Assembly: GCA_023434145.1 (NCBI GenBank)
Contig: JAEYTI010000365.1
Location: 1,001 to 65,000 of the forward strand
Direction: 5' to 3'
DNA length: 64,000 nucleotides
Origin: Chloroflexota bacterium
GTDB taxonomy: Bacteria; Chloroflexota; Anaerolineae; Anaerolineales; Anaerolineaceae
Part shown: positions 1 to 52,479 of the stretch, one piece after another
Position numbering within the stretch: position 1 is the first letter of the stretch
How the letters are laid out: each line of letters starts with the position of its first letter
The notes under the pieces: model-generated
Database searches by the model: none
What the model saw: only the letters and a program-made list of their open reading frames with translations
What the model was told of the DNA's origin: nothing
Program-made: the position numbers and the translations under genes

Positions 1-227
1 CAGTCAAAACTGTCGAAGCAATTGACGAGATGCAGAAGTATAAGATTACCCGCTCGCTGCAAACGACTGCTTTTGATGAAACGATCACCTTTGTTTTCCC
101 CAAGACAAAAGATGCTGCTCAGATGACCATTTCATCGCTTGTGGCTGAACTGTGCAAGTCCGGTGTTTTAACCGAAGACGAACTGCGCCAGGCCATCAAC
201 CAGGCTCTTAATGACAACCAACAATAA
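1..227 (+). CDS. 3' end of a CDS running off the left edge. Its position directly 5' of pglX fits brxC/pglY of a type 1 BREX operon, but identity cannot be verified from ~75 codons.
   Basis: The frame of the 30..227 ORF stays open back to nt 3 (..VKTVEAIDEMQKYK..). The stop is at 225-227, 23 nt before the pglX ATG. Confidence 0.4.
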   Translation, partial: VKTVEAIDEMQKYKITRSLQTTAFDETITFVFPKTKDAAQMTISSLVAELCKSGVLTEDELRQAINQALNDNQQ

Positions 228-250
228 CTGTTGATGAGGAATTAACGATA

Positions 251-5835: not shown

Positions 5836-5844
5836 GAGCCAATT

Positions 5845-7926: not shown

Positions 7927-7937
7927 CGGAGGTCCAA

Positions 7938-8972: not shown

Positions 8973-9004
8973 TGTGATTGGGTAACCAACGAAGAGGTTT
9001 ATAA

Positions 9005-9934: not shown

Positions 9935-9998
9935 CCACCAGAGAAAGATTTCTTCGTTTTTTGGATAGAGATCTTCTGAATCGATTAAGGAGAAGAGC

Positions 9999-11372: not shown

Positions 11373-11462
11373 AATCACAACACAAATAGACAAACTTTAT
11401 CCAAGTAACAATTGAATAAGATCCTAACCAGATGATTATGCTTTCTCTAATAGGAGCAATAT

Positions 11463-12377
11463 ATGAGCAACCAAGAGTTTATCATCGATAATGGGCTTTT
11501 TCCATCGAAAGCGCTCAATTTTACTCTTTCCGAATCATATGAAACAATTGCTAATACCCTAAAAACGCTGAAAGAGTATCGGGGTTTCTCACAACCAGGT
11601 GAATCCTCATGGGATGAGTACATTGAAGAGATATTTCACGTGCTTGGTTTTGGTACTAAGAAACTTGATTCAAGGTTATTGGCTCTAAATGTAATCGGAG
11701 AGCTTGATTCAAAAAAAGCACTAATGGGCATAGTACACCCAGGTGAAAATATGACATTAATTATTCCAGACCTTGAGTGGGATACTTTACTTTTTTATGC
11801 CGCAAATTATTGGAAAGTGTATTGGGGAATCTTGACAAATGGCTTGGAAATAAAAATTGGAGATTTTGCTACGCAGGAAAGGCATAGAAAGTATTATTGG
11901 TGTAACTTGGAAGCGATCATTGAAGAAGAACGAGTAGACAGCTTTTTCAACCTATATAAAGTATTCGCTGTAATAAAAGGCCAAAAAGAAGAACCAAAAA
12001 TAATCACGAAACCACTTTCAAGGGGCACTTCCACAATCAAACCTCAAAGAACAAATGGAAATAGTATTTTGTTAGTAATTACCCAGGGTGCACTTACGCA
12101 TAGTTACATGAATGTGGCATCCAATTTAAGTTTCTTTCCAACTGATTCTATTGGTGCTTCAAGTGCAAAATATGGATTAGGTAAAATGTTAAAGCTTCAT
12201 GTGGATGGGCTTTCTTTACCAATTGAAACAGACATCGCAGGAGATAAAAAATTCTTCCGTGAAAGAGGATGGTGCGCAGACTTTTATCGCGTACATGCTT
12301 TGCAGCCAGGAGATGAGGTTTTGATAGAACGACTATCCGAGTACGAATATCGAGTTTCTCCAGGGAAGAAAGCATGA
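11463..12377 (+). CDS. PglX-N-terminal-domain paralogue 4 with a beta-rich C-terminal domain resembling a B3/EcoRII-N-type DNA-binding pseudobarrel (304 aa)
   Basis: AGGAG RBS. N-domain blocks TLKEYRGF, VLGFGTKK, WGILTNG, DSFFNLYKVF. The C-terminus ..RERGWCADFYRVHALQPGDEVLIERLSEYEYRV is assigned by pattern only. Confidence 0.7.
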   Translation: MSNQEFIIDNGLFPSKALNFTLSESYETIANTLKTLKEYRGFSQPGESSWDEYIEEIFHVLGFGTKKLDSRLLALNVIGELDSKKALMGIVHPGENMTLIIPDLEWDTLLFYAANYWKVYWGILTNGLEIKIGDFATQERHRKYYWCNLEAIIEEERVDSFFNLYKVFAVIKGQKEEPKIITKPLSRGTSTIKPQRTNGNSILLVITQGALTHSYMNVASNLSFFPTDSIGASSAKYGLGKMLKLHVDGLSLPIETDIAGDKKFFRERGWCADFYRVHALQPGDEVLIERLSEYEYRVSPGKKA

Positions 12378-12400
12378 GCTGCTCACCCTTATAAAAGATT

Positions 12401-12430
12401 ATAGGCCTTGGACAAACCAAGGCCTATTTT
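12401..12430. terminator. Bidirectional intrinsic terminator between convergent genes
   Basis: Perfect 11-bp stem ATAGGCCTTGG / CCAAGGCCTAT with a 5-nt loop. TTTT follows on the + strand and CTTTT on the - strand. It lies between the stops at 12377 (+) and 12433 (-). Confidence 0.75.
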
Positions 12431-12432
12431 AA

Positions 12433-15400
12433 TTAGATTCCTAACCCCATCTGTCCTTCTGGTAGCACCTCCTTTCTCATTGTTTTCCGTACAACTACTG
12501 TCTTTTTTGTCACCCAGTCATTCCAAGTCAGTGCTTTCGGATCAGGCATGATTGTCGCGCTCGGCATCGTCAGACTGCCCATGGGATTGTGACTCATGTG
12601 TAGATCATCGGCAAACATGGCTTGTAAATCCGGCAATTCCGCTTCTTTCAGCACTTCGCGTGCCAATTCGGTCAACAAATCCCCATCTTCTTCGGGTACG
12701 ATTGCGCCGCCAACTTCATCGCCGTACAATGTCTGCGCCGCTCGCATCTTCCGACCCATCAAGGCCAGCGCTCGGGCTTCCATCGTGCCTTCATAAACGG
12801 AGAATAGCGCCTTGACCGGCTTGGTCTGCCCTAGCCGCCATACCCTTCGGACAGCCTGCCATAAACAGTAGAGCGAGTACTCCGTCTCGAAGAAGATCAC
12901 CGTGGAGAATTGGACGAGATCGAGCCCGGTTTCGACGAGCTTGGGGTTGCAGACCAGCACGTCGGTGTGCGCTACGCGATTGGCGATCCATTCCTCACGC
13001 CGGCGAGGATCAACTCCGCTGCTGAGCACAGCCGTCCGAAGCCCTGCTTCTTTGAGCGGCTCGACCACCCGGTCTTGTATATCTCTTGTCCCAGTCTGGC
13101 GCACGTAGACCAAAACCTTGCGCCCCTGCCACTTTTCATTACGGCAGAAGTCGGCCAGCCAGCCTTCTTTGGGCAGCCATTTCGGGTTGCTGTTGACCAC
13201 CGGCGGAAGCACCATCAGCGGCACTTTGCGCACGACCTTGCCTTTCTCGTCTTTGGCCTCGTCGATCATGACCGTTTCCTCGCGGAAGGCGGAGTTGGGG
13301 CGGGCCAGCGACCATTGCAGCCAAGTGGACAGGTAGCGGTTGGATTGCAGCGCCATGGATTTGAGCGTGCTTTCCATCTGTTGGTATTGGCTGGACTGTT
13401 CCTCCAGCATCTCGAGCGTTGTCACCTCCTCATTGTAGGCCGGCAGCGCCAGTCCCAGGTCTTTGAGACTCAAGAATATGGTCGTATCCAGCAGCCGGTT
13501 GATGATTGCTGGGCTAATGCCGGGCTGCTCTTTGGCATTGTTGCGATAGCGCCGGTTGCCGGTGAACACGCCATCTTCGTCTGCGTCATCCCGCCGGCGC
13601 TTGCGTTTCGTTTCCAGCACGCCGTATAACCTGGCCCAGCGCAGTTCTTCGTTGAAGGCGAAGTCCCGGCGCACTCCGGCATTCAGCCGGTGCAGCAACC
13701 AGAAAATCGAAGTAGACTTTCCGCCGAAGAACGTGCCGGTGAGTGTCAGTGTGCTTTTGCAGGCGGTTACGAGCTGGTGGAAGGCGATACCTCGGTCCGA
13801 GGACTTCCCTTTAAACTGGTGGAGCTCATCGGATACGAGAATGTGAAATCGCCCCGACGCTTTCTTGGCGATGTACTCTGCAATCGCCTCCCGCCGGACG
13901 GTGGTGAAGTCAAATAGCGGTGTCTTGCAAAGCCTGGTCCCCCAGATCGGGTTGCCGTCACCGTCCAGCTTGCGCGTGCCATCCGGGTTGAGCTGCCAGC
14001 CGGGAACCATCGCGCGACAGAAGTGTCGCTTTTTCGCCAGCTGCTCCAGATCGGTCACCGGCACGATCACACCATTTTCCTCCGTCTCGATCAACGTTCC
14101 GCATGTCGGGCAGGCGTACGCCCAGATGCGGTGGCCGGTCAGCGGATCAACCGTGCGTTTTTGCATCGCGGCTGGCTTCCAGCCCGCGCCGAACTTGGCG
14201 GCGGTATTCGCCACCACCGCGACCGCTTTCTTGCCGCTTCGCCCGGCGTCGTAGTCCTCCAGGAAGGCGCGGACATCGTTGATATCCCCTGGATCTTCGG
14301 CATTCCGGCCAATCCGCCGGATTTCACGCGCATGCACGCCTGGGATCACCTCTTCCACCTCGCGGATCCACTTGGGAACCAGGTGCGGCGGGCAGATGAT
14401 CAGGGCGGGATAGGCGTTGAGCAGGTCGATCACGGCAGACGCCACCGTGGTTTTCCCGGACCCCATTTCCGCTTGGCAGTTGGCCACGCCGTGCTTGCGA
14501 ATACAGCGCGCCAGCGCCGCGGCGGCATGGCGTTGGGTGGGGAGCAGTCCGGGGCGATCTTGTCCGGGGAGGGGCTTGCGTTCTTGTCCCAGGCGGTCAA
14601 GCACCTGGACCTCTTGTGGGGTGGGGTCAAAGTTGTAGAGCGGGCGGTACGTTTTCATCACATGGGCGGCGATCTTCTCACCGTAGGCTTTCATGAACGG
14701 CACCAGCCCCTGGATATCCTGGATCACCTCGATCTTGTCCTGCTTCAGCACCGCCACGGTTGTCACAAAGCGGTCGCGGTAGGTCTCAGTGACCTCCTCG
14801 CCCTTACCCTCTTCACCAACCTTCTCCACCTTTTTGACCACCCGGCCTTTGATCAGCATCGGCCGGCCCTCTTCGTCGGTCAGCCGGACGGTTCCCATCA
14901 TGCCAGAAGCCATGAGCATCGCCACGTGGCCTTTCTTCAGCGGCATGACCGGTTGGGTCAGCTCCGCTCGGTTGTGATCGGGCTGGATCAGGTCCAGCCA
15001 TTCCTTGGTGCGCTGGAAGCCATGTTCGAGGGTTGCTTCGACCACGTCTTCAGCTTCCCAGTCGGTGCGCTTGAAGATCACCGGCCGGCCATCGAGGCCG
15101 CGCTCGGGTGCGGGTAGCAGATGATAAACAGGTTCGCTCAGCGGTGCGATTGGATCCAGCTCCATCTTGGCCCAGGCTTGCACTGCTTCGATCTCAGCCT
15201 CGGTTGGAATGGTGTAGCTCTTGCGCCGGTAGCCCAGCACCACCACCTGCTTGAACTTCTCAAACAGGCCATCCGGGAAGCGCCCCACGGTCAGGCATTC
15301 GTACTGCCCAGCCAAGATGCGCGCCACCTGCACAAGACCTAGGATGTGCTGTGGGACGATATAAATTAACAGCCCCCCGCGAACCAGTTTAGATGTGGTT

Positions 15401-15750
15401 GAGCTGAGAAACTCTAGCTCGACGCGCTTGTGGTCATCTGAGGACTCATAGGGTGGATTAAGGAACAGAAGTGAGATGGATTCGTTGGAAAGAAAGCAGG
15501 CTTGCCAGGGAGCCTGAAAGACGCGGTCCATCTTCTGGCCGGCTGTGGCTGCACGAGCGGGAGATAGTTCCACGCCCCAGGTTGCGCAGTTCATCGCGCG
15601 GCCCAGTTTGGCTGCGGCAATGCCTTCCCCGGCGCAGGGATCGAACAGGCGGGCTTTCTCAGAGGCGGGTGCGATATAGGTGGTGAGGATGTCGATAACG
15701 GGTTCGTCGGTTGGGTAGTAACCCAGTTTTTCTACGGCTGGCGGTCTCAT
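12433..15750 (-). CDS. Fusion of an N6-adenine DNA methyltransferase and an SNF2/DExH helicase (DarB-like, 1105 aa)
   Basis: Start moved to MRPPAVEK (AAGGAGAG RBS). MTase motifs are LFDPCAGEGI and LLFLNPPYES. Helicase motifs are AEMGSGKTTVA, VSDELHQFKG and QAVRRVWRLGQTKPV. A Cys4 cluster (CPTCG..C) lies between the lobes. Confidence 0.85.
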   Translation of the reverse strand: MRPPAVEKLGYYPTDEPVIDILTTYIAPASEKARLFDPCAGEGIAAAKLGRAMNCATWGVELSPARAATAGQKMDRVFQAPWQACFLSNESISLLFLNPPYESSDDHKRVELEFLSSTTSKLVRGGLLIYIVPQHILGLVQVARILAGQYECLTVGRFPDGLFEKFKQVVVLGYRRKSYTIPTEAEIEAVQAWAKMELDPIAPLSEPVYHLLPAPERGLDGRPVIFKRTDWEAEDVVEATLEHGFQRTKEWLDLIQPDHNRAELTQPVMPLKKGHVAMLMASGMMGTVRLTDEEGRPMLIKGRVVKKVEKVGEEGKGEEVTETYRDRFVTTVAVLKQDKIEVIQDIQGLVPFMKAYGEKIAAHVMKTYRPLYNFDPTPQEVQVLDRLGQERKPLPGQDRPGLLPTQRHAAAALARCIRKHGVANCQAEMGSGKTTVASAVIDLLNAYPALIICPPHLVPKWIREVEEVIPGVHAREIRRIGRNAEDPGDINDVRAFLEDYDAGRSGKKAVAVVANTAAKFGAGWKPAAMQKRTVDPLTGHRIWAYACPTCGTLIETEENGVIVPVTDLEQLAKKRHFCRAMVPGWQLNPDGTRKLDGDGNPIWGTRLCKTPLFDFTTVRREAIAEYIAKKASGRFHILVSDELHQFKGKSSDRGIAFHQLVTACKSTLTLTGTFFGGKSTSIFWLLHRLNAGVRRDFAFNEELRWARLYGVLETKRKRRRDDADEDGVFTGNRRYRNNAKEQPGISPAIINRLLDTTIFLSLKDLGLALPAYNEEVTTLEMLEEQSSQYQQMESTLKSMALQSNRYLSTWLQWSLARPNSAFREETVMIDEAKDEKGKVVRKVPLMVLPPVVNSNPKWLPKEGWLADFCRNEKWQGRKVLVYVRQTGTRDIQDRVVEPLKEAGLRTAVLSSGVDPRRREEWIANRVAHTDVLVCNPKLVETGLDLVQFSTVIFFETEYSLYCLWQAVRRVWRLGQTKPVKALFSVYEGTMEARALALMGRKMRAAQTLYGDEVGGAIVPEEDGDLLTELAREVLKEAELPDLQAMFADDLHMSHNPMGSLTMPSATIMPDPKALTWNDWVTKKTVVVRKTMRKEVLPEGQMGLGI

Positions 15751-15865
15751 AGGTCTCTCCTTGTGAAAAGGTGATGCCCGATGAGACGCGCAGCACCCCA
15801 ACGGGGACGCGCCCCATCGGGGGAATAGTGAGTTGTGTCATTGGTGAATTACAGGGGGGGTGTGT

Positions 15866-16942
15866 TTAGAGCACGATCTCGTGTTCGGTCAGCAACTGCT
15901 CGATCAAGCCTTTCCAGTCGGCCGGCCCGCTGAGCGCGATCCGGCAGCCCAAGATGCAATCGCCGCCAACAGTGAGCTTCTCCAGGTACTTGTGTTTCAC
16001 GGCTGCTTGCCATAACACGGCCGCCCATTCATCCAGAATGGGGATTTCCACGGCTTCCTTCAGCCGCTTGATCACCGCCTTTTTTGCAGCCGCCTGTGGA
16101 TCCAGCTCGCCACGAAAGACCAGCACATAGGCGTATAGATCCTCCGGTTCCCATTTGCCAGGAATGGCCTGGCGGGCGACAAAGGCAGCGTGATGGCTGG
16201 TGTATTCCGGCATCGGGTGCAGCAGGTGTTTGTACCGGTCGAGCGGCAGCAGCATCTGATAGGTGTGCTGGTCGGGGAACTGCATATTGAGCGGCTTATG
16301 GGTGATCAGGGTGGCGCGCAGCGATTCCAGGCTAGTCTTGTAGCCGGTGACCCCAGCGTAGACCAGGTAGTTGTCGCGGTCAAAGGCGTAGCCGGACAGG
16401 TGACCGAGGGTATGCGCGTTGGCCAGGGTCGGAACCGCGCCCGGATATAGGCGGTCCACCGGCGCTTTGCTATCCTGATAGGTGATCTTCCAAACAATTA
16501 CGCCGGTGTTCTTGCGGCTCAGTTCCTCGTTTAGTTCGGTCAGGATCTGGTTGCCGGCATTCCACACCGATACGCCGGTGAAGGTGATCAGCGTATCGCC
16601 CACCTGGACCTCTGCGGTGCGGGTGGCCAGGTTGAGGACAACTTCACCAAGCGCAAGCGGCTTTTGGTTGCGCAGCACCGCCGGCAGCGCCTGGTTTCCT
16701 TTCGGAAAGAAACTGTACATCCCCAGATCGCTTTCGTAATCCAGGAATCCGCTGTTGCCAACGATGTACGAGTGGGGGTGAAGGTTAGCCGCGTAGCGCA
16801 GGTCGGACAGGTCTTCGCGGGTGGGCAGACCGGTCCCGTCTTTGTAGGCAGCCACCAGGATTTTGCCTTTCTTCTGGGCCTGAATGACTTTGCTGACGCG
16901 CTCGCGCAGGTACTGGTCTGTGTAGGGTTGTTTGGTGCTCAA
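15866..16942 (-). CDS. Hypothetical protein (358 aa)
   Basis: Long ORF co-directional with the island. TTG start with AAGGAGG 5 nt upstream. I recognise no motif. Confidence 0.6.
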   Translation of the reverse strand: MSTKQPYTDQYLRERVSKVIQAQKKGKILVAAYKDGTGLPTREDLSDLRYAANLHPHSYIVGNSGFLDYESDLGMYSFFPKGNQALPAVLRNQKPLALGEVVLNLATRTAEVQVGDTLITFTGVSVWNAGNQILTELNEELSRKNTGVIVWKITYQDSKAPVDRLYPGAVPTLANAHTLGHLSGYAFDRDNYLVYAGVTGYKTSLESLRATLITHKPLNMQFPDQHTYQMLLPLDRYKHLLHPMPEYTSHHAAFVARQAIPGKWEPEDLYAYVLVFRGELDPQAAAKKAVIKRLKEAVEIPILDEWAAVLWQAAVKHKYLEKLTVGGDCILGCRIALSGPADWKGLIEQLLTEHEIVL

Positions 16943-16963
16943 GTGATCCTCCTTGTAGTTTCT

Positions 16964-16990
16964 TACAAACGATTGGGTTTCGATGACGAT
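16964..16990 (-). promoter_or_regulatory. Conserved island motif, copy 1 (ATCGTCATCGAAACCCAATCGTTTGTA on the - strand)
   Basis: Lies 21 nt upstream of the start codon at 16942. It is 26/27 identical to copy 2. An AACGTT-containing extension upstream is also conserved. Confidence 0.55.
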
Positions 16991-17197
16991 AGCGAACGTT
17001 CGTGAGCCTACCGCTCAGGGCAGGGCAGCACACGCAAAGGTCTCTTCGGTGGTCTTTGCGTCTGCCGTCCTACCTTGGAAGGAATTTCGGATGACCGGGC
17101 TGGTATATAATTGGAGACGATCCGGGTAAGGAAAAGACCAATAATCATCAACCAGATATTGATCTCTAGCCGCGTTACCGACATCGGAGGTGGGTGA

Positions 17198-17812
17198 TTG
17201 AACCGTGAACTGATCCTGTTCGACTTTGAATACACTGCCTGGGAAGGCTCCAAAGCGAGAAAATGGTCGGAACCCTGGGAGCATCGTGAGATTATCCAGG
17301 TTGCAGCAGTGCGCATTGCCGTAAACGGATCTGCGACAGAACGGGAAAGTTTCGAATGTCTGGTCAAGCCGAAAAAGAACCCAGATCTTTCATCCTATAT
17401 CATTCAACTCACGGGGATTCAGCAGGGAGAGATGGATTTGCGCGGTCTATACTTTCCCCAGGCTTTTGCTTCGTTCTTCGCGTTTTGTCATCAGGGAAAG
17501 ATTCCGCTATTTTGCTTTGGGGATGATCCATCTGTCTTGCTGGAAAATTTTGCATTGAATGCGATGGAATGCCCTGCATTTCCTGCCGGCGTGCATGATA
17601 TCCGTTTGGTTTTTGAGCAGGCCGGTATTGATACCCGCCCATATACGAGCGGAACAATTCATCGGGTACTTGGCATCGACTTTCCGCATGCAGCCCATAA
17701 TGCGTTGAACGATGTACGCAGTCTGGCAGTGACAATCCAGCACTTGTTGCAACTGGGAAAGATAGACTTATCTGGCGAGGCCGCGCACAAGGCAAGATTT
17801 CTAACCCTATAG
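17198..17812 (+). CDS. DEDDh (DnaQ-like) 3'-5' exonuclease
   Basis: 204 aa. ExoI LILFDFEYTAW and ExoIII HNALNDVRSLA. TTG start preceded by GGAGGTGGG. This is the only + strand gene in the 12.4-24.7 kb block. Confidence 0.7.
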   Translation: MNRELILFDFEYTAWEGSKARKWSEPWEHREIIQVAAVRIAVNGSATERESFECLVKPKKNPDLSSYIIQLTGIQQGEMDLRGLYFPQAFASFFAFCHQGKIPLFCFGDDPSVLLENFALNAMECPAFPAGVHDIRLVFEQAGIDTRPYTSGTIHRVLGIDFPHAAHNALNDVRSLAVTIQHLLQLGKIDLSGEAAHKARFLTL

Positions 17813-17857
17813 GCCGTTCCGTATTTCTTCTTCAGGATTTCTGTCAACACCGCAGTG

Positions 17858-17892
17858 CTGGGCTGGAAAGAGGTGATCTCTCTCCAGCCCAG
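17858..17892. terminator. Stem-loop between convergent genes (exonuclease and dnaN); probable terminator without a clear U-tract
   Basis: 10-bp perfect stem CTGGGCTGGA / TCCAGCCCAG with a 15-nt loop. Confidence 0.35.
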
Positions 17893-17905
17893 TCCTTCTA
17901 CCAGG

Positions 17906-19021
17906 CTATCCCACATGCACCGGCATGAGGATATATTGGTAACTACTGTTACCCGACGGGCTCATGGTCATCGGGGTCTTGTGGCCGTTGCCTTGCAGGA
18001 CGATTTCCGGTGACTTCACCACGCTGAGGAACTCGCGCAGGAAGCGGACGTTGAAGGCAATTTCCAGTGCATCGCCCTCGATCCACGCCGGTAAGTGGGA
18101 TTCGCTCAATCCGGTCTCCTCCGCGGAGGCCGACACGCGCAGCTCCTCGCCTTCGGCTTTCAGCTTCACCACGTTTTGCCCGTCGCGAGCGATGATCTCG
18201 GCCTGCTTGCAGGCTTTGAGCAGCCCGTCGGTGCTGACCGTGACCCTCGTCTTGTGCGACTTGGGCAGGATCATCTTGTAGTCGGGGAAGTTGCCGTCCA
18301 CCAGCTGCGAGATGACCTGCAGCCGGCCGTGCTGGAAGATAATCTGGCTGCCACTCTTGGGCAGCACCAGATCGACCGGTTCGTTTTCCATTCCGATCAG
18401 CCGCACCAGTTCCTTCAGGGCGCTGGCCGGAATGACCAGCTTGCGCGGCTTGTCGACGAGCGACTGCGAGAACTCGTGCTGGCGCAGCGCCAGGCGGAAG
18501 CCGTCCGTGGCCGCCAGGGTCAGGCGCTTGCCGTCCATTTCGACCAGCACGCCATTCAAGACCGGCCGTGAGGTGTCATTGGAAGCGGCGAAGGTCACTT
18601 GGTGCAGCATTTCGCGGAAGGCGGCGGCATCCAGCGCCGAGCCATCTTGGTTAATACGGCTCGGCATTACGGGGTAGTCAGACGCGTCCATCCCTTTGAG
18701 CTTCGCCTTGACCGGGCCACAGCGGAGATCCGCGTCTGGCGTGCCGTTCAGGTGCAGCGAGACTTCCGCGTCACTCAAGGTGTTGACCAGATCGGAGAGG
18801 ATTCGGGCGGGTAAGGTGGTTGCGGCAACCGCATCCGTCTTTGCGTCGATCTGCAGGGTGATGCCGACTTCCAGGTTGGTGGAAGCCAGCTCCAGCTGGC
18901 CGCCCTCGGCTTTGATCAGGATGTTGCTCAAGATCGGCAGGGTGGCGCGGGTGGTGACGGTGCGGGTGACGATCCCCAGCGCCTGGGCCAGGGAAGCTTT
19001 CTCTATAGTAATAGTAGCCAT
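17906..19021 (-). CDS. dnaN: DNA polymerase III beta sliding clamp (element-encoded copy)
   Basis: 371 aa. The N-terminus ..LAQALGIVTRTVTTRATLPILSNILIKAEGGQLELASTNLEVGI.. and the overall three-domain length are typical of DnaN. Confidence 0.85.
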   Translation of the reverse strand: MATITIEKASLAQALGIVTRTVTTRATLPILSNILIKAEGGQLELASTNLEVGITLQIDAKTDAVAATTLPARILSDLVNTLSDAEVSLHLNGTPDADLRCGPVKAKLKGMDASDYPVMPSRINQDGSALDAAAFREMLHQVTFAASNDTSRPVLNGVLVEMDGKRLTLAATDGFRLALRQHEFSQSLVDKPRKLVIPASALKELVRLIGMENEPVDLVLPKSGSQIIFQHGRLQVISQLVDGNFPDYKMILPKSHKTRVTVSTDGLLKACKQAEIIARDGQNVVKLKAEGEELRVSASAEETGLSESHLPAWIEGDALEIAFNVRFLREFLSVVKSPEIVLQGNGHKTPMTMSPSGNSSYQYILMPVHVG

Positions 19022-19024
19022 TGG

Positions 19025-19552
19025 TTATCCTCGAAGTGGTTGGGCTTGTTCATTGAGCCAGGCGGTCAGCGCCGCCACAGCCTTCTGCGTGGTTTCCATC
19101 CAGAGCATCACGTCCTGGACGGTGACGGTATCCATCTGCTGGAAGCGGCCGATCACCAAATCCAGCATTTGATCTAGACTGTCGACATGGAAGATCTGTT
19201 CGCTCTGCGGCCATTGGGCAGATAGGAAGGCACGAGCGTCCTGGGGTTTGGCGATCCAGGCTTTGCGCTCCTGCCGGTCGATCACCAGCCAGGCTTTCGC
19301 TTCGGTCTCGGAGGAACCAAGATCGACGCGGTACAGCGCCGGGTAGATGATCGGGTGCTGGATATAGGCCAGGAAGCCCTGCCACTCGCCGGTGGCGGTG
19401 GTGCGGCCGTCGGAAACCATTGCCTCATCGCCGCAAGGTTCCCACCAGGCAGCGAAGAAACGAGCTTGGCCGTTATAGCCCAGGGCCTGCTCGAGCAGCG
19501 GATCCGGTGGAACCGGGATAGACAGGGTCGCAAAGGTATCGTTGGGAAGCAT
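19025..19552 (-). CDS. Hypothetical protein (175 aa)
   Basis: Start moved to MLPNDTF (GGAGG 7 nt upstream, 19 nt after the upstream stop). Only 3 nt separate its stop from the dnaN start. Confidence 0.55.
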   Translation of the reverse strand: MLPNDTFATLSIPVPPDPLLEQALGYNGQARFFAAWWEPCGDEAMVSDGRTTATGEWQGFLAYIQHPIIYPALYRVDLGSSETEAKAWLVIDRQERKAWIAKPQDARAFLSAQWPQSEQIFHVDSLDQMLDLVIGRFQQMDTVTVQDVMLWMETTQKAVAALTAWLNEQAQPLRG

Positions 19553-19571
19553 ATGTGTTCCTCCAGGTGAA

Positions 19572-19994
19572 TTAGAAGTCATCATCGTAGTCACCGCAAC
19601 CGGGGTAGTAGCCTTCGTCATCGCCTAGGCGAGTCGAATTCTCGTACTGCTCGGTGAATGGCCCTTCGTCCGGTTCGATGTCCGGTTCCGCCCATTGGCG
19701 GTACTGCTCCGGCACACCTTCTTCAAAGATCACGTATAGGACGTACGGCCACTGCAGGGCATCCGAGTTGTGGAGCGCCCGTTCCGCCCGTTCGATCAAA
19801 TCGGTCACAAAGGCGTCGGTGACCACCTCGTCCGGTACCTGGAAGCGCTCCAGCACTTCGGCCAGATACTGCGCCAGGTTGGCGTAGGTGATTTCAAAGG
19901 CGGTCTTGTGCGGTTCGTAGCCGAGTTCGACCAGCCGGTGGAGGATTTCGTCTTTCCTGGAGGGTTCGGGGTTGACTTGCGGGTCTTGTGTCAT
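19572..19994 (-). CDS. Highly acidic 140-aa protein (candidate DNA mimic or anti-restriction protein)
   Basis: By my count ~33 Asp+Glu versus ~9 Lys+Arg. C-terminus ..GDDEGYYPGCGDYDDDF. Co-directional with radC and dnaN. Confidence 0.55.
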   Translation of the reverse strand: MTQDPQVNPEPSRKDEILHRLVELGYEPHKTAFEITYANLAQYLAEVLERFQVPDEVVTDAFVTDLIERAERALHNSDALQWPYVLYVIFEEGVPEQYRQWAEPDIEPDEGPFTEQYENSTRLGDDEGYYPGCGDYDDDF

Positions 19995-20040
19995 GGTTGT
20001 GTCGTCCTTTCGGGTGAGCTAGGGTGGTAGGAAACCTGGA

Positions 20041-20760
20041 TTATGAAAAGCCCAGGCCGCGTTCTTTGAGGCTGACCCAGTTGGGGTTGCCGATGATCAG
20101 GTGATCGAGCACCGAGATATCCAACAGCTTGCCGGATTGGACCATGGCGCGGGTGATGGCCACGTCTTCCGGGCTGGGATCCGGATCGCCGGAGGGATGG
20201 TTGTGCGCGATCACGATGGCCGCCCCATTTTGCTGGATGGCGGGTTTGAACACTTCCGCGATGCGCACGGCGGCCGAGTTGAGGCTGCCGTGATACACCT
20301 CGGTAATCTCCAGCACCCGGTGGCGGGTGTCGCAGGTGATCACCAGCAAATATTCTTGCTGGCGATACGCCATGCGCGGCACGAAAATCTCCGCCGCTGA
20401 AGAAGGGCTGTTGACCAGCGGGCGTTCATCCTCCGGTTCGAGCAGCTTGCGCCCGATCGCTAAGGAGGCTTTCAGGCGCAGCGCGGTTTGTGAGCCGACG
20501 CCTTTGACCGAAGCGATCTCGTTGACGTGCGCGCCGGCTAACTTGTGGAGCGTACCGAAACGGAAGAGCAGGCGCTCGGCGGTTTCAATTTGCTCGCTGC
20601 CGCCGATGATCACGGCCAAGAGCTCGGCTAAGTTGCAAGCATCAGCGCCAGTTGCCACCCGGTAAGCTGGTTTTTCGCGGATGGGGAGGGCTTTGACTTT
20701 CGGGGTGGAATAAGGGGTGAGTGGAGTGGTGAAGAGCGTAGGTGGGAGTGGATCGGTCAT
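20041..20760 (-). CDS. radC: RadC-like JAB/MPN domain protein
   Basis: 239 aa. HhH-like N-terminal half (..EIASVKGVGSQTALRLKA..) and the JAMM motif HNHPSGDPDPSPED. Confidence 0.85.
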   Translation of the reverse strand: MTDPLPPTLFTTPLTPYSTPKVKALPIREKPAYRVATGADACNLAELLAVIIGGSEQIETAERLLFRFGTLHKLAGAHVNEIASVKGVGSQTALRLKASLAIGRKLLEPEDERPLVNSPSSAAEIFVPRMAYRQQEYLLVITCDTRHRVLEITEVYHGSLNSAAVRIAEVFKPAIQQNGAAIVIAHNHPSGDPDPSPEDVAITRAMVQSGKLLDISVLDHLIIGNPNWVSLKERGLGFS

Positions 20761-20845
20761 GGGGTCTGTCTCCGGGGAAAAGTAGCGGGAACAGACTCCA
20801 GCCTTTTTTTTGAAGGGGAGGTCTGTCCCCTTCGGTTGGGGTGGG

Positions 20846-21352
20846 TTATGCCGTTGGATCGAAGCCTTCCGCGGCGGCTTTGGCGTAAATGTCTTTCAGA
20901 TCGTCTGCAGTCAAGATTTCATCCCGCCGGACGCCAGGATAGCCGTCTACAGGGGGAACGATCCAGGGGTTTTCTTGCCAGTTGCGGTAGATGCGCTCGA
21001 GCTTGGCCTGCAGGAAATGGTTGATCCCGCCGCTTTCGCAGCGCCAGCCTGGCTCGCGGGTGTATTTGCCATCCCAATCCGGCGCGCGGGTGGTCTTCCC
21101 GCCGCAAATGGGACAATCTGGCTGAGGGTCAGGCGCGCGCTGGCCGCCTTCGCGCAGGTACTCGCGCACCTGGTCGATGGCAGCGCAATGCGCTTCGCCG
21201 CAGCTGCATTGTTTTTGCTTGTTGACGCGATGAAGGCGGGGCCGAACTGCGAGGCCAAAATCGACCAGGTATTCGCAGCCCCAAATCACGACGCCAGTTT
21301 TATGGCTAGTTGGTGCGGTTGAAGTCGATAAATCAGGGTGGGTGGTGGTCAT
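20846..21352 (-). CDS. Cys-rich (zinc-ribbon-like) hypothetical protein (168 aa)
   Basis: Start moved to MTTTHPD (GGAGAT 6 nt upstream). Cys clusters are CSCGEAHC and CPICGG..WRCESG. Confidence 0.5.
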   Translation of the reverse strand: MTTTHPDLSTSTAPTSHKTGVVIWGCEYLVDFGLAVRPRLHRVNKQKQCSCGEAHCAAIDQVREYLREGGQRAPDPQPDCPICGGKTTRAPDWDGKYTREPGWRCESGGINHFLQAKLERIYRNWQENPWIVPPVDGYPGVRRDEILTADDLKDIYAKAAAEGFDPTA

Positions 21353-21373
21353 GTGGGATCTCCAGGTGTGGGG

Positions 21374-21400
21374 TACAAACGATTGCGTTTCGATGACGAT
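21374..21400 (-). promoter_or_regulatory. Conserved island motif, copy 2 (ATCGTCATCGAAACGCAATCGTTTGTA on the - strand)
   Basis: Lies 21 nt upstream of the start codon at 21352, the same spacing as copy 1. Confidence 0.55.
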
Positions 21401-21600
21401 CTTTGCAAACGTTGATGAACCGTCCAGGCAGTGTTTTGCCAGACAGTACACGCTGGAAGAGAAACTTCATTTCGCCACCATTCTGGCTGGCGGAGTAAGG
21501 TTTGGAGCTTGCCAGCCGGTTCTCTTACGGCGTGTCTCAACCTGTTCCCCACAAAAGCCAGGCAGTCAGGCTGCCGGGCTTTGGTCGAGAAAGGTTGGTA

Positions 21601-21831
21601 TCAGGTCGGATCTTGTAATACCTGGATGGGTTTTTCGCGGATTCGCTCAACCGCCACGTAGATACTGTCCGTTTGCGCCGGGCCTCCGTGCGTAAAAACG
21701 GTAAAGGGCTCGCCGGAAAGGGCGCGAACGCTGGCAAGTTTTCGCCCACGAACATCGATTACACTCATAATCTCAACCGGAATATCTGCTTTTCCTGTGA
21801 GCGTGTCGATCGTAACGGTGCCAATAATCAT
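21601..21831 (-). CDS. Hypothetical small protein (76 aa)
   Basis: ORF co-directional with the island. Weak GGAG upstream. No recognisable motif. Confidence 0.4.
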   Translation of the reverse strand: MIIGTVTIDTLTGKADIPVEIMSVIDVRGRKLASVRALSGEPFTVFTHGGPAQTDSIYVAVERIREKPIQVLQDPT

Positions 21832-21849
21832 GGTTCTGCTCCGGGTGGG

Positions 21850-21881
21850 CCGGTTCCTGGCAAAGAATTGCCAGGAACCGG
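21850..21881. other. Perfect 14-bp stem-loop (CCGGTTCCTGGCAA agaa TTGCCAGGAACCGG) between two small genes; function unknown
   Basis: Read directly from the sequence. No U-tract on either side, so it is not a canonical terminator. Confidence 0.5.
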
Positions 21882-21893
21882 TAAGGAAAAAGT

Positions 21894-22100
21894 CTAGTCG
21901 TTCCAGCCGCTAACACGGTCTTCGTACGCCATTTCGAGGTGGGCGTCCGGGGCCGGGTGGGGTGGAAGGGGAGAGACGGCTTCCTGTAAGAAGCTGGTCA
22001 GTGTGTCAACCAGGGCGTCATCAGTGATCGGGTCAAAACCAGTACCGAGCACTTTTTCGACCAGGGCAACGATGGTCTTTGCGATCTGATGGTTGCTCAT
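21894..22100 (-). CDS. Hypothetical acidic small protein (68 aa)
   Basis: ORF lying 10 nt downstream of ssb on the same strand. No motif recognised. Confidence 0.45.
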   Translation of the reverse strand: MSNHQIAKTIVALVEKVLGTGFDPITDDALVDTLTSFLQEAVSPLPPHPAPDAHLEMAYEDRVSGWND

Positions 22101-22110
22101 CGCTCATCCC

Positions 22111-22518
22111 TTAGAAGGGGATATCGGCATCAGGGGTGGAGCCAGGCTCGCTATCTGAGGCTCCGTTCTCACCCTTCGAGGACAGGAAACGGACAGTCGC
22201 GGCGGTAACTTCATACGACGCGCCGGCCGAGCCATCCTGGCGGTTCCAGACGCGCGGACCCCCGGTATCCGGATCGGGGGTCAGCCGGCCTTCGACGAGG
22301 ACTTTGCTACCCGACTGTAAGTGCTGGCTGCAGGTTTCGGCTAGCTTGCCCCAGGCAGTGATGCGGAACCAGGTCGTTTCTTTGACCGGCTGGCCGCTTG
22401 GGTCGTTATAGCTGCGGTTCGAGGCGACCGAGAAGTTGGTGACCGGTTGACCGGAGGGCGTGTATTTCATCTCCGGATCCTTGCCTAAATTGCCAACGAG
22501 AATGATGGTGTGAAACAT
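22111..22518 (-). CDS. ssb: Single-stranded DNA-binding protein
   Basis: 135 aa. OB-fold N-terminus MFHTIILVGNLGKDPEMKYTPSGQPVTNFSVA..WFRITAWGKLAE and the canonical acidic tail ..DADIPF. Confidence 0.9.
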   Translation of the reverse strand: MFHTIILVGNLGKDPEMKYTPSGQPVTNFSVASNRSYNDPSGQPVKETTWFRITAWGKLAETCSQHLQSGSKVLVEGRLTPDPDTGGPRVWNRQDGSAGASYEVTAATVRFLSSKGENGASDSEPGSTPDADIPF

Positions 22519-22536
22519 GGGGTATCTCCTTGTACG

Positions 22537-22572
22537 AAAAATAAAGCCCCAATCCGGAAGGGGAGAGGGGCT
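22537..22572 (-). terminator. Intrinsic terminator after the SWIM-Rad52 gene
   Basis: On the - strand: AGCCCC, a 16-nt loop, GGGGCT, then TTATTTTT. Confidence 0.45.
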
Positions 22573-22599
22573 GGTGATCCGATGGGCGGAATGCCTGGT

Positions 22600-23706
22600 T
22601 TAGGCGGCTGTGGTTTGGGTGCGCATCCAATCTCGCAGAACATCCCGGCTTTGGGGAGCCTGCCCTTTGGACTTGAGGAAAGTATCGAAGGCGGTGCGTT
22701 CGCTTTCATTGCCATTTACCTTCGTTCCATCTTGATAAATCCGTTCAGCAGGTGGATTGGCTTTGGCAGCCGAAGGCACATTTGCTTTGCCGTTGGCCTT
22801 GTTTTTTGATTCTGAACCAGTGGCGCTTGCGCTGCGAGAAGAGGCATTGGCGGAACTGCCAGCCCCGTTACCATTGGAGCCGGTCCCAGCCGTTGCAGCG
22901 ATCTCTTTATCGTAAAGGCTCAAGCCGAACTGCTCACCCAACTGGCGGAAGCAGCGCTTCAAACAGTCGGTGACGCAGCCGGCAAGGGCCATGTCCAGCG
23001 CCTCTGGCGTATCGCCGGTAAACATGCAGCGGCCAAGATCCGAGTGGGTGTAGTTCTGTCCATCCAGGGTAATCTGGACAGAGCCAGTGATGTACACCAT
23101 CCCGACCTCCTCCAATTGCGGCTGTCCCTGCAGGTCAAGTGCAGGCACTTTCTTGCGCTGTTGAGCATCCCAGATCAGGATGCGGCGGTTCCAGCGCACA
23201 ATCTGCGGCTCGCTCAGCAGGTTATAGGACCAGCAGTAAGAGAAGATGCGGTTGGCAGTCTCGATGACATCGTAGCCTTCGAGATATGGAACTGTGCCTG
23301 AACCGGGTGCCTGGCGGCGTTTCACCCGCGTCATATCCAGTGGTTGGCGCAGATTGCTCAGAATGTGTTCGAAGTCGGGAGAATTCAGAGATGGGTTCAT
23401 AGTAAATTGCTCCGGTGGTTGCGTTGAATTGGTCTGGTCAATTTCCGCAATGCGCACGGCTTCCACATGTTTACATCGCAGCTCGTGGCCGTGCTTTTGA
23501 AAATCTGGGCAGGTGCAGGACCAGGTGGTATCCAGCAGTTGGACGGCATAGGGCGGTTTTTCCCCGTTTTGAACCGACCACTGAGTGGGTCCAATGCGCT
23601 GGACGGCGAACTGATGTCCGTTCAGGCCTTGCCAGGCTCGTATAGTGCGCTGATTCTGTGCGTCTGCGGGGTCGAGGGTATCAATGTAGGCGGCCAGGGA
23701 TACCAT
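22600..23706 (-). CDS. SWIM zinc finger fused to a Rad52/22-family single-strand annealing protein
   Basis: 368 aa. SWIM motif WSCTCPDFQKHGHELRCKH (CxC..CxH). Rad52-like block ..VPYLEGYDVIETANRIFSYCWSY... Low-complexity Ser/Ala/Gly tail. Confidence 0.7.
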   Translation of the reverse strand: MVSLAAYIDTLDPADAQNQRTIRAWQGLNGHQFAVQRIGPTQWSVQNGEKPPYAVQLLDTTWSCTCPDFQKHGHELRCKHVEAVRIAEIDQTNSTQPPEQFTMNPSLNSPDFEHILSNLRQPLDMTRVKRRQAPGSGTVPYLEGYDVIETANRIFSYCWSYNLLSEPQIVRWNRRILIWDAQQRKKVPALDLQGQPQLEEVGMVYITGSVQITLDGQNYTHSDLGRCMFTGDTPEALDMALAGCVTDCLKRCFRQLGEQFGLSLYDKEIAATAGTGSNGNGAGSSANASSRSASATGSESKNKANGKANVPSAAKANPPAERIYQDGTKVNGNESERTAFDTFLKSKGQAPQSRDVLRDWMRTQTTAA

Positions 23707-23715
23707 GCTGGTCCC

Positions 23716-23841
23716 TTACAGGTAACGTTTGAGCCGTTGCTCGTACTTGTATTGAGGCGTTTGGGAGTAAATCAAGGCGGCCAGATTGCGCAGCATCAGA
23801 GCGGCGGTGATCAGGCCAATCAGGATTGCGAGAGCTGTCAT
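23716..23841 (-). CDS. Small single-TM protein (41 aa)
   Basis: Start moved to MTALAILIGLITAALML.. (GGAGGA upstream). Motif copy 3 lies just 5' of it. Confidence 0.4.
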   Translation of the reverse strand: MTALAILIGLITAALMLRNLAALIYSQTPQYKYEQRLKRYL

Positions 23842-23864
23842 AGGTGTGATCCTCCGGGTGGTCA

Positions 23865-23893
23865 GAAAGACGATTTGAGTTTCGGAAACGATG
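23865..23893 (-). promoter_or_regulatory. Conserved island motif, degenerate copy 3 (CATCGTTTCCGAAACTCAAATCGTCTTTC on the - strand)
   Basis: Shares the blocks ATCGT, TC(C)GAAAC and CAA(A)TCGT with copies 1 and 2. Lies 23 nt upstream of the start at 23841. Confidence 0.4.
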
Positions 23894-24235
23894 GACGACG
23901 TAGTACAACTACCCTCGCTCACTTCGTGGCAGGGCAGCATACGCGGAATGCGAATGCTTTTTCGCGTTCCGAATATGCCGCTCTACTGGAGCGGCAATGA
24001 GTGATTATCTTGTGTGGGATATGAACCAAGGCGTTTCCACACCCGGGTTGTTTATTAAGGTGCTGGAATCAAAAAAGGAGGATCACCCGGTTCCATTAGA
24101 ACGCGAAGTTCTAAAAGCGCCGGCCAGCCGGCCGATATGGCAAGCTGTTTCGGGTGATCCTCCTGGTGAATGCCCACGATGTCAGGGGGAGATCGCGAGC
24201 GGTGGTATGATGTGATATAGGAGCTGAATAGTCGA

Positions 24236-24700
24236 TTAACCAGCCGTGGTAAGAACCTCCTCTTCGCTTTCTTTTCGCCGGGTGGTGGAACCTGGCGCTC
24301 TGCGTGGCGTCTCGATCATCAAGATGCGCTGGACCAGGATCTCGATGACGTTGCGGCCAATGCATACGTCTTTTCCCGCGCCGCCCTTGACTTCAACGGT
24401 GATATCGCCATTGATCCGGCTTTGCCGGCGCGATTTATCGAGGAATTCGTCCAGCGATTCTTCAAATTCTCGGCTTTGCAACAAACCATGTACCCGCAGG
24501 TGCTGGCCTTTCTGGATAACCAGCGGGCTGCGGGCGCCTTTGGTAATCCTGGCATTGATGTAATCAGCCGCATCTCGTTCTTCATTGAGCAATTTTCCGG
24601 GTAGGTCAGGATCCCGGTATGACGCCAGGCGGAAAAACAGGTCATCGGAAAAGGTCCAGGTGTTGATTACCACACCTTCTAAAATCACTTCATTGATCAC
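24236..24700 (-). CDS. Possible OB-fold (SSB-like) protein (154 aa)
   Basis: Start moved to a GTG (AAGGAG 6 nt upstream), giving MINEVILEGVVINTWTF..FFRLASYRD. The upstream part of the track ORF is AT-rich promoter DNA. Confidence 0.5.
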   Translation of the reverse strand: MINEVILEGVVINTWTFSDDLFFRLASYRDPDLPGKLLNEERDAADYINARITKGARSPLVIQKGQHLRVHGLLQSREFEESLDEFLDKSRRQSRINGDITVEVKGGAGKDVCIGRNVIEILVQRILMIETPRRAPGSTTRRKESEEEVLTTAG

Positions 24701-24811
24701 AGACTGCTCCTTGTAGGTTAAAACAGAAAAGCCAGGAACGGCCTCTTGGAGGCGCGCTGCTGGCTCACGATTGGTTGGAAAACGGTAATATTCTATTTGA
24801 TTGTTGTTATG

Positions 24812-24840
24812 AATATAGCACAGTCCGAATCGAGTGTCAA
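24812..24840 (-). promoter_or_regulatory. Sigma70-type promoter for the OB-fold gene and the island operon
   Basis: On the - strand: TTGACA, a 17-nt spacer, then TATATT. It lies ~105 nt upstream of the GTG at 24700. Confidence 0.55.
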
Positions 24841-48962: not shown

Positions 48963-48966
48963 CGTC

Positions 48967-49365: not shown

Positions 49366-49389
49366 AAGCGCCTCCAATAAAGATTGGTT

Positions 49390-49432: not shown

Positions 49433-49448
49433 TTGGTTGACCCTGGCC

Positions 49449-49595: not shown

Positions 49596-49638
49596 GGTTT
49601 TCACCTCCTTTCCTGTAGAATAGGTCGTTCTTGTGTTG

Positions 49639-52467: not shown

Positions 52468-52479
52468 AGAAGCTCCTTG

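Follow-up and report, generated by a model that had tools for sequence, protein, structure and literature searches.

We analysed a block of genes at positions 12433-24840 of a 64,000-nt stretch of DNA (the window) from a member of the Anaerolineaceae (Chloroflexota; contig JAEYTI010000365.1). The block is probably a conserved, co-oriented DNA-metabolism module of large integrative mobile elements that use tRNA-Met sites in Anaerolineae. Comparison with related loci has shown the content and order of the block, the boundaries of the element in two examples, the presence of a bacteriophage exclusion (BREX) operon and a Tad pilus cluster in the same element, and the existence of cargo hotspots. 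Judged by sequence matches, the element family was found here only in Anaerolineae (Chloroflexota). It is apparently undescribed; our literature searches gave no description of it, and no paper on Anaerolineae mobile elements was found. An earlier note on this DNA had likened the block to a leading or anti-defence region of a mobile element.

Gene content and order of the block

When the proteins of the block were compared with the whole assembly by tblastn, a diverged syntenic second copy was found on contig C299 (24774-37118), with 30-71% amino acid identity. This copy is without the exonuclease, the acidic 68-aa gene and the small membrane peptide. Using the SWIM-Rad52 protein as a marker in species-representative genomes, we identified 78 related loci in about 60 assemblies. 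Nearly all of them are labelled Anaerolineae or Chloroflexota, and several genomes carry two to four copies. The gene order is invariant, running from an oligonucleotide/oligosaccharide-binding (OB) protein through SWIM-Rad52, SSB, a Cys-rich protein, RadC, an acidic protein and DnaN to a cargo slot, orf358 and a methylase-helicase. Because this gene set and order recur in the second copy and in the 78 loci, the block is more than a chance grouping, and the suggestion that it may be a fragment gives way to that of a conserved module.

Gene presence was counted in the 39 loci with full 10-kb flanks, the gene calls in the relatives being longest open reading frame (ORF) picks. The OB, SSB and Cys proteins are present in all 39 loci and RadC in 38. 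Lower counts were obtained for the methylase-helicase (31), orf358 (30), the acidic 140-aa protein (29), orf76 (28), the TadE genes (28-30), DnaN (24) and orf198 (19), and the acidic 68-aa gene was seen in four loci.

Of 24 other genomes in the same family, 5 have a strong SWIM-Rad52 match, as does 1 of 7 genomes in the same genus. The chromosome has separate dnaN, ssb and radC genes of its own, on contigs C255, C57 and C41. The block is thus neither conserved in position in all relatives nor a set of ordinary paralogues, the two outcomes that the earlier note had named as speaking against a mobile origin. Element genes were also seen on short contigs of metagenome-assembled genomes (MAGs) labelled Micrarchaeota (L057), Oscillospiraceae (L082) and Desulfuromonas (P0239); these are most likely mis-binned Anaerolineae contigs rather than cases of cross-phylum transfer.

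The block holds fourteen genes with about 88% coding sequence, and our recount agrees with the earlier one in placing thirteen of them on the minus strand. In coordinate order they are:

12433-15801, minus strand: DUF6094 amino-methyltransferase (motifs FDPCAGEG and NPPY) fused to a superfamily 2 (SF2) DExH/Helicase_C helicase, with a Cys-rich insert (Pfam, motif reading)
15866-16942, minus strand: orf358, an orphan protein, always directly upstream of the methylase-helicase
17198-17812, plus strand: RNase_T/DEDDh (DnaQ-like) exonuclease (Pfam, E 1.2e-9; PADLOC DEDDh)
17906-19021, minus strand: element-encoded DnaN sliding clamp (three Pfam domains)
19025-19621, minus strand: orf198, conserved, pI 4.7, with 48-51% identity in the C299 and G004 copies
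19572-19994, minus strand: acidic 140-aa core protein, pI 4.05, with 33 D/E against 9 K/R
20041-20760, minus strand: RadC-like JAB-domain protein with an HhH N-terminal domain (Pfam RadC, E 4.8e-39)
20846-21352, minus strand: Cys-rich 168-aa protein with a conserved SWIM-like CxCx4C, then CPxC and C...H (family alignment)
21601-21831, minus strand: orf76, a small conserved protein, with 44% identity in the C299 copy
21894-22100, minus strand: acidic 68-aa protein, pI 4.37, in few elements only, G004 among them
22111-22518, minus strand: SSB with the acidic C-terminal tail DADIPF (PF00436, E 6.4e-30, 103.7 bits)
22600-23706, minus strand: SWIM zinc finger and Rad52/Rad22 single-strand annealing protein (PF04434 and PF04098)
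23716-23841, minus strand: 41-aa single-pass membrane peptide, the first gene past copy 3 of an upstream motif listed below (sequence)
24236-24700, minus strand: candidate SSB-like OB-fold protein, the first gene of the block (family alignment, profile ranking)

Each domain that the earlier note had read from the sequence (SWIM-Rad52, SSB with its DIPF tail, RadC, DnaN, DEDDh exonuclease, methylase-helicase) was recovered by Pfam, PADLOC or direct reading. The same holds for its two acidic small proteins, with pI values of 4.05 and 4.37, and for its Cys-rich protein, which has conserved zinc-type ligands. PF04098 covers residues 113-272 of the SWIM-Rad52 protein (E 1.3e-15; 58.1 bits against a curated cut-off of 20.3), and the Rad52 domain also matches a PHROG recombinase family. 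The DnaN of the block shares 43% identity with the product of the chromosomal dnaN on C255 and 47% with the C299 copy.

Element ends, BREX and the Tad half of the backbone

The block of cultured relatives lies inside elements of 77-126 kb that are bounded by tRNA-Met direct repeats. We delimited the boundaries in two complete elements, those of Leptolinea HRD-7 (126 kb) and Flexilinea (77 kb). A tRNA-Met(CAT) gene is located directly past the outer integrase (PF00589) in Flexilinea, in both Leptolinea elements and on contig C259 of the genome studied here. A direct repeat of the 3' part of this tRNA gene marks the far end of the element, at a distance of 126 kb in Leptolinea HRD-7 (a perfect copy of 46 nt) and of 77 kb in Flexilinea (79 nt, 92% identical). 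A perfect attL-like copy of 45 nt is found on contig C214 of the window's own genome. Directly inside attL there are genes for ParA, a 740-aa protein with a DnaA_N domain, a second OB protein and a protein in which we read a PD-(D/E)xK-like motif; homologues of this arm lie on contig C296 of the own genome. Repeats and an integrase, for which the earlier note had proposed a search, were accordingly found both in relatives and on C259 and C214. Its remark that no integrase is visible holds for the window contig, but a tyrosine integrase lies beside tRNA-Met on C259 and at the element end in relatives. There is no tRNA gene within the 64-kb window.

Four elements of cultured strains share one order: a small reverse gene, the genes from o185 to TadE, those from OB to the methylase-helicase, a convergent BREX operon, an HTH_17 (Xis-like) gene and two tyrosine recombinases. 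As reconstructed from gene order, the complete backbone is predicted to run from attL through ParA and the DnaA_N protein, secreted and membrane proteins, the HerA/VirB4-like ATPase and one or two Tad systems into the block, and to continue with BREX, the Xis-like gene and two tyrosine recombinases up to attR in tRNA-Met. The remaining features of the window, including those that control the block, are:

1-12377, plus strand: BREX cargo (Pfam, PADLOC)
12401-12427, both strands: bidirectional intrinsic terminator between BREX and block, with an 11-bp stem, 6 GC pairs and T-runs on both strands
16964-17028, minus strand: motif copy 1, promoter/operator-like, CTGCCCTG...ATCGTCATCGAAACCCAATCGTTTGTA, 21 nt ahead of the orf358 start
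21374-21400, minus strand: motif copy 2, 26/27 identical to copy 1, 21 nt ahead of the Cys-protein start
23866-23937, minus strand: motif copy 3, with a diverged core, ahead of the 41-aa peptide that precedes Rad52
24812-24840 (read 24840-24812), minus strand: near-consensus sigma-70 promoter heading the block (TTGACA-17-TATATT, extended TG, 11/12 matches)
24954-47780: inserted cargo of about 23 kb that splits the backbone (Pfam; without counterpart in relatives)
47923-62703, minus strand: the other half of the backbone (Pfam, NCBIfam NF033849, synteny with relatives)
59996-60060, minus strand: motif copy 4, ahead of the small transmembrane (TM) gene that precedes the big ATPase gene

The BREX operon of the window comprises a PglX methylase, a PglZ-like protein, BrxL, four PglX-N/DUF4268 genes and BrxC, the last truncated where the contig ends. 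BREX converges on the methylase-helicase in six of seven mapped elements (the window, Flexilinea, both Leptolinea, Levilinea and C299). The seventh, that of Bellilinea, has BREX beside the backbone on the opposite side, and the ends of this element are not delimited. The earlier description of the block as abutting BREX was right as to position but understated, since BREX lies inside the same element and is transferred along with it. The Bellilinea element (G016:C6, ~30-97 kb) is permuted, with BREX and integrase-like genes left of o185. Inserted genes, about 2.5 kb in all, interrupt its methylase-helicase, beyond which directly lies a serine recombinase of 553-571 aa; no other serine recombinase was found near the elements.

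The block has a GC content of 57.5%, compared with 44.1% in positions 1-12400, so the abrupt change at the terminator that the earlier note had described is real. However, the mean of the whole assembly is 57.9%. Since the block lies close to this mean, the BREX side and not the block is the compositional outlier, and the jump marks foreign-looking BREX cargo rather than a foreign block. The single orientation is not confined to the block; it spans the whole backbone of about 35 kb or more. The lone plus-strand gene is explained by its place, because the exonuclease occupies the cargo slot between dnaN and orf358.

The other half of the backbone encodes the secreted proteins o185 and o445, the polytopic o231, a small TM protein and a 1185-aa Ser-rich HerA/VirB4-like ATPase, together with CpaB, TadZ, TadA, TadB/C-like proteins, a prepilin peptidase and two TadE proteins. 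By Pfam the Tad/Flp component set is present; no secretin was found among window ORFs of at least 100 aa. Bellilinea caldifistulae has an uninterrupted run of o185, o445, o231, a 1167-aa ATPase, CpaB, TadZ, TadA, TadB/C-like genes, prepilin peptidase and two TadE genes, which continues directly with OB, Rad52, SSB and onward. The adjacency of TadE and OB is also seen in an Ornatilinea MAG (G020) and a Chloroflexota MAG (G011). These arrangements bear out the proposal that the block belongs to a larger element including the ATPase/Tad cluster. The TadE genes of relatives are just 0.2-3.6 kb from the OB gene, and the ~23 kb that separate the Tad cluster from OB in the window are inserted cargo because they have no counterpart there. 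This cargo holds two insertion sequence (IS) copies (one DDE_Tnp_1), a TerY-P-like vWA/PP2C/kinase triad, a DUF87 ATPase cassette, SNase and HD genes and a Big_13 surface protein.

The 1185-aa ATPase belongs to NCBIfam NF033849 ("serine-rich protein") and carries the Walker A motif GDTGFGKT. Its profile matches HerA in PDB sequences (E 5e-6), and its structural model, with a predicted local distance difference test (pLDDT) score of 80-97 in the core and an overall mean of 62.7, gave Foldseek matches to DndH-C, HerA, VirB4, TrwB and Cag-beta at E 1e-6 to 1e-4. The model points to a HerA/FtsK-superfamily translocase; the fold search does not separate HerA from VirB4 or from the type IV coupling protein (T4CP).

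The own genome holds two elements of this family. Contig C299 carries TadE, ~23 kb of cargo and the run of block genes from OB to the methylase-helicase, after which comes another BREX-like operon. Contig C28, counted with it as the second element, contributes a further Ser-rich ATPase (64% identity) and a further set of Tad genes. Since the assembly is fragmented into 382 contigs, the integrase and ParA arms cannot be assigned to one or the other. Directly past o185 the GC content of the window falls to 38.5% (62704-64000). The window lacks the small reverse gene F16 that is found ahead of o185 in the elements of Flexilinea, Leptolinea and Levilinea; on the full contig a 1269-aa low-GC ORF comes next instead. 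The ParA-side arm of the window element appears to be replaced or truncated. The right flank (65-69.6 kb) is not conserved within the genus. The contig ends in a repeat of ~125 nt (G000:C362:69484-69610), which recurs at 99-100% identity on six or more other contigs; the assembly probably breaks here at the end of an IS or other repeat. Because the contig stops in this repeat and the flank is unconserved, the insertion boundaries of the window copy are not definable.

The DEDDh exonuclease of the window lies in a cargo hotspot, the gap between dnaN and orf358. Across 32 loci this gap is either near zero or filled with one to four mostly reverse-strand genes from at least eight families. Among the families scanned we identified REase-ARP/PD-(D/E)XK, AbiEi/AbiEii, MerA/MerR, Ymh, an ECF sigma pair and DUF4209. 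Further slots lie between TadE and OB and within the Tad region. In Levilinea a 61-nt direct repeat (G044:C9:39037-39097 and 56354-56414; 95% identity) brackets 17 kb of cargo between the two Tad sets, possibly as the trace of a nested insertion.

A motif of about 65 nt is present in four copies in the assembly, all on the window contig and each 21-23 nt before a start codon. As it is shared by the block and the ATPase operon, it ties the two halves of the backbone together as one regulon. We also considered the 27-70-nt motif as a family-wide signal, but it is specific to the window element; Bellilinea shows no more than a partial analogue, at the same two positions. A fifth, weaker match to CTGCCCTG...ATCG...GAAAC was seen outside the element contigs, at G000:C19:2643 (+). 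The near-consensus promoter that the earlier note had placed before an OB-fold gene stands, whereas the OB call itself is weakly backed (profile E ~0.1). A similar promoter lies ~110-147 nt upstream of the OB start in 14 of 46 related loci (at least 10/12 matches), compared with 9 of 500 random windows.

Movement between genera and the role of the block

Between attL and the tRNA gene, a stretch that takes in BREX and the integrase, the Flexilinea element is 88-95% identical in nucleotides to that of Leptolinea HRD-7; the flanks outside cannot be aligned. Between the two Leptolinea elements the identity is only 72-78%, in patches. A maximum-likelihood tree of 63 SWIM-Rad52 proteins contains 18 near-identical members from Flexilinea, Leptolinea, Levilinea, Ornatilinea and Bellilinea, and copies from the same genome are non-monophyletic in 10 of 11 multi-copy genomes. 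The window Rad52 groups with that of an uncultured Anaerolinea MAG (74% identity) and not with the copy on C299. At the level of nucleotide and protein identity these comparisons show that the elements have moved recently between genera.

Several points weigh against the block being a module of such mobile elements. None of the known types of transfer machinery was identified, so that "self-transmissible" follows from phylogeny only. The window copy is incomplete on its own contig, with the integrase end and the ParA arm on other contigs. The block occurs without a nearby Tad cluster in G004:C29 and in Ornatilinea, and the ATPase occurs without Rad52 in three genomes, which means that the halves of the backbone can separate. 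Five core proteins (orf358, orf198, the Cys protein, orf76 and the acidic 140-aa protein) offer no functional clue. Regarding the pairing of the halves, the ATPase and the Rad52 marker are found together in 5 of 41 genomes, Rad52 alone in one and the ATPase alone in three. One genome of the same genus (G003:C160:4550-6466) has a Ser-rich ATPase 95% identical to the window copy and no credible SWIM-Rad52 match; either the halves are separable, or the block is unassembled there.

If the block is the module that we propose, we infer that the element, once excised by Int/Xis, would behave like a plasmid by means of ParA and the DnaA_N protein, and that the block would serve as its own kit for single-stranded DNA (ssDNA) and the replisome. 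The OB protein and SSB would coat single strands, and the Rad52-type annealase would re-join or repair element DNA. DnaN, in some elements together with the exonuclease, may recruit the host polymerase, and RadC may have a role at DNA ends. Modification of element DNA by the methylase-helicase could allow survival of restriction in a new host. Transcription would start both at the strong sigma-70 promoter of the OB gene and at the repeated motif, which the ATPase/Tad operon has as well. Transfer from cell to cell is assumed here. The block may serve replication in the donor after excision, establishment and restriction escape in the recipient, or both.

The earlier label pictured the leading region of a relaxase-dependent conjugative element, which enters first as ssDNA, is transcribed early and delivers anti-defence functions through the methylase, acidic mimics, SSB and RadC. 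Plasmid leading regions have been described as enriched in SSBs and methylases on the transferred strand, a hallmark when both lie on one strand (Samuel and Burstein 2024, PMC11541004), and in the SXT/IncC work cited here an annealase-exonuclease pair, with the element's SSB, helps to repair breaks inflicted by host defence during conjugation (PMC7498323). In line with this, the block has the co-oriented SSB and orphan methyltransferase and 13 of 14 genes on one strand, it begins with a strong promoter, one of its conserved core proteins is very acidic, and the elements move between genera. Nevertheless, we consider this explanation unlikely. Pfam families for relaxases, T4CP, VirB4 and FtsK were absent from window ORFs of at least 100 aa and from the scanned flanking-arm proteins. 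The relaxase family PF03432 had no match in five host genomes, the lone match to PF02486 lies on another contig and none inside the elements, and a genome search for FtsK (PF01580) gave nothing inside the elements; other MOB families were covered by Pfam-A scans of translated ORFs. The note's own statement that no relaxase or structural genes are visible is upheld by Pfam in the window; relaxases and oriT-associated families were likewise not found in the delimited elements. Among the block proteins there is no member of the Ard, Kla/KlcA, Psi or Acr families in Pfam, PHROGs or PADLOC, which are general rather than dedicated anti-defence libraries, and the annotation proposed for Ard, Kla and Psi yielded no Pfam family. 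The motif was rejected as an Frpo-like ssDNA promoter hairpin, as folding of the four motif regions on both strands did not exceed shuffled controls (z -0.2 to -1.8). Moreover, co-orientation extends over the whole backbone, and DnaN and a Rad52-type annealase fall outside the gene categories given for leading regions in the part of the study cited (PMC11541004). Of the earlier reading, the mobile-element part is supported and the leading or anti-defence label is unproven.

Spread by packaging, with the block as the early recombination and replication region of a temperate phage, a phage-plasmid or a satellite-like element, is very unlikely. Rad52-like annealases are described as common in temperate phages, typically beside SSB (PMC3945230; compare the Sak/Rad52-SSB-methylase modules), the Rad52 domain matches a PHROG recombinase family, and tRNA integration with Int and Xis is common to prophages. 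Yet the window has no match to the families of phage structural and packaging proteins (terminase, portal, capsid, tail); the only terminase-like signal is a weak P-loop match in the ATPase (PHROG, E 0.0026). The 77-kb Flexilinea element consists of backbone, BREX and reverse-strand cargo and leaves no structural gene block, and the DNA of the block matched neither the plasmid collection nor any of 50,697 phage records. It is also rather improbable, though by analogy conceivable, that the Tad pilus, the membrane proteins and the HerA-like ATPase form a machine for DNA exchange or uptake, as in Ups/Ced or Flp-pilus transformation, with the block processing the incoming strand. A polytopic membrane protein, a small TM protein and an ATPase of the HerA/VirB4 fold adjoin a type IV-like pilus operon, an arrangement that resembles CedA/A1/A2/CedB with Ups (as described in PMC9905601), and one motif is common to the ATPase operon and the block operons. 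This explanation draws on pure analogy; the fold search does not separate HerA from VirB4/T4CP, the block can occur without an adjacent Tad cluster, and no ComEC or DprA homologue was seen in general Pfam scans of the window. RadC and a second SSB belong to the competence regulons of some bacteria, which would suit such a machine. An ordinary chromosomal cluster of replication and repair paralogues without any link to mobility is hardly credible: the GC content of the block does equal the genome mean, but the distribution is patchy, genomes carry several diverged copies, the blocks lie inside att-bounded elements with near-identity between genera, and the chromosome has its own dnaN, ssb and radC.

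Within our reading of the block as a module of integrative elements, one mode of movement can be put forward tentatively. It is possible, if somewhat unlikely, that the elements spread by contact without a relaxase: the Tad pilus would join filaments, a membrane complex with the ATPase would move the DNA, and the block would receive, re-anneal, replicate and methylate it. If true, a mobile element would have captured a bacterial counterpart of archaeal Ups/Ced, and the result would be a conjugation apparatus of a new type.

Relation to known systems and details of single genes

The element family is defined here as a whole, by boundaries, integration site, backbone and cargo slots, with recent transfer between genera and BREX travelling as cargo. 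Transfer is evident though no relaxase or type IV secretion system (T4SS) was recognised, and a Tad-type pilus with a HerA/VirB4-like ATPase sits where a conjugation apparatus would be expected. Carriers are available in culture (Flexilinea flocculi TC1, Leptolinea tardivitalis YMTK-2 and Levilinea saccharolytica KIBI-1), which makes the mode of movement directly testable. The SWIM-Rad52 protein, the SSB-like OB protein and the methylase-helicase fusion form a small set of unusual proteins suited to biochemistry, and five orphan core families are flagged.

As far as the cited accounts go, the elements resemble tRNA-integrated integrative and conjugative elements (ICEs) and islands, such as SXT/R391 with ssb-bet-exo (PMC3118119, PMC7498323), in the terminal tyrosine integrase with an Xis-like gene and in the tRNA-3' repeats. 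Further likenesses to the SXT/R391 type are the co-oriented backbone with cargo hotspots, the defence cargo and an element-borne annealase, SSB and exonuclease. In contrast to SXT/R391, no relaxase, T4CP or canonical T4SS was detected here, the annealase is of the Rad52 type fused to SWIM and not of the RecT/Red-beta type, and the element has its own DnaN. A Tad-type pilus and the Ser-rich HerA-like ATPase stand in place of the T4SS, and the family is so far known from Anaerolineae only.

Actinomycete integrative and conjugative elements (AICEs) such as pSAM2 integrate into tRNA genes, carry Int/Xis and a replication function, live in filamentous hosts and do without a relaxase, using a single hexameric ATPase of the FtsK/HerA superfamily as pump. 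They measure 10-25 kb, and the pump is the FtsK-like TraB. Our elements are similar with regard to the tRNA site, Int/Xis, a replication function, the filamentous host, the missing relaxase and a HerA-superfamily ATPase as candidate DNA pump; they differ in their size of 77-126 kb, in the absence of PF01580 and in an ATPase that is HerA/VirB4-like and accompanied by pilus genes.

Anti-defence islands of leading regions, in the features reported in PMC11541004, are matched by SSB, an orphan methyltransferase, small acidic proteins and near-uniform orientation. Unlike for those islands, no oriT or relaxase was identified, and the block shows no known anti-defence family and no Frpo-like hairpin in the motif regions; it holds a replisome clamp and an annealase, and its orientation is common to the whole backbone. 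Phage Sak modules, as outlined in PMC3945230, likewise place a Rad52-fold annealase beside SSB, whereas here the annealase has an N-terminal SWIM finger and phage structural genes are absent.

The archaeal Ups/Ced system has been described as a type IV pilus paired with a HerA/VirB4-like importer (PMC9905601). The likeness, on the evidence cited from this work and PMC11823120, lies in a type IV-like pilus operon beside polytopic membrane proteins, small TM proteins and an ATPase of HerA/VirB4 fold. Here the genes are bacterial and on a mobile element, and the resemblance is one of gene arrangement and fold. Anaerolineae are core populations of anaerobic digesters, and their Tad cluster was described as an adhesion organelle (PMC4877987). 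With the Tad "widespread colonization island" the elements share CpaB, TadZ, TadA, TadB/C, prepilin peptidase and TadE, and Tad loci are known for their horizontal mobility, but here the cluster is tied physically, and through the motif in regulation, to a DNA-processing module and a HerA-like ATPase in an att-bounded element.

With regard to single genes, the true start of the methylase-helicase is likely Met17. It is the last backbone gene and shares 68% amino acid identity with the C299, Flexilinea and Leptolinea copies. We rejected it as a member of BREX, DISARM, Dpd or Zorya, as the likeness is a low-scoring generic one in the helicase C-terminal part and the gene is not beside BREX in Bellilinea. 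Homologues of orf358 form 154 clusters, all unnamed, without Pfam domains and so far from Chloroflexota only; an AF2 model from a 26-sequence alignment (mean pLDDT 66.5) had no Foldseek match against PDB at E < 0.28. The unassigned core proteins gave nothing in NCBIfam, PHROGs or PADLOC except NF033849 for the ATPase, and orf198 was also without a Pfam match. The acidic 140-aa protein had no family match in Pfam or PADLOC and is, from its composition, a candidate DNA mimic. The Cys-rich protein is probably zinc-binding, as its conserved ligands suggest; its start was corrected to ATG 21352, and its profile had no match among PDB sequences.

The OB gene most likely starts at GTG 24700 (VINEV) and not at 24847. 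Its family profile ranks bacterial SSBs at the top, at E 0.09-0.3 only, and the OB-fold identity of the product is accordingly weakly supported. The small ORF after it was corrected to the 41-aa membrane peptide at 23716-23841. Within the inserted cargo, the gene of a 450-aa C39-like protein contains a perfect 47-nt direct repeat (37875-37921 and 37989-38035, 114 nt apart), which implies a repeated peptide segment.

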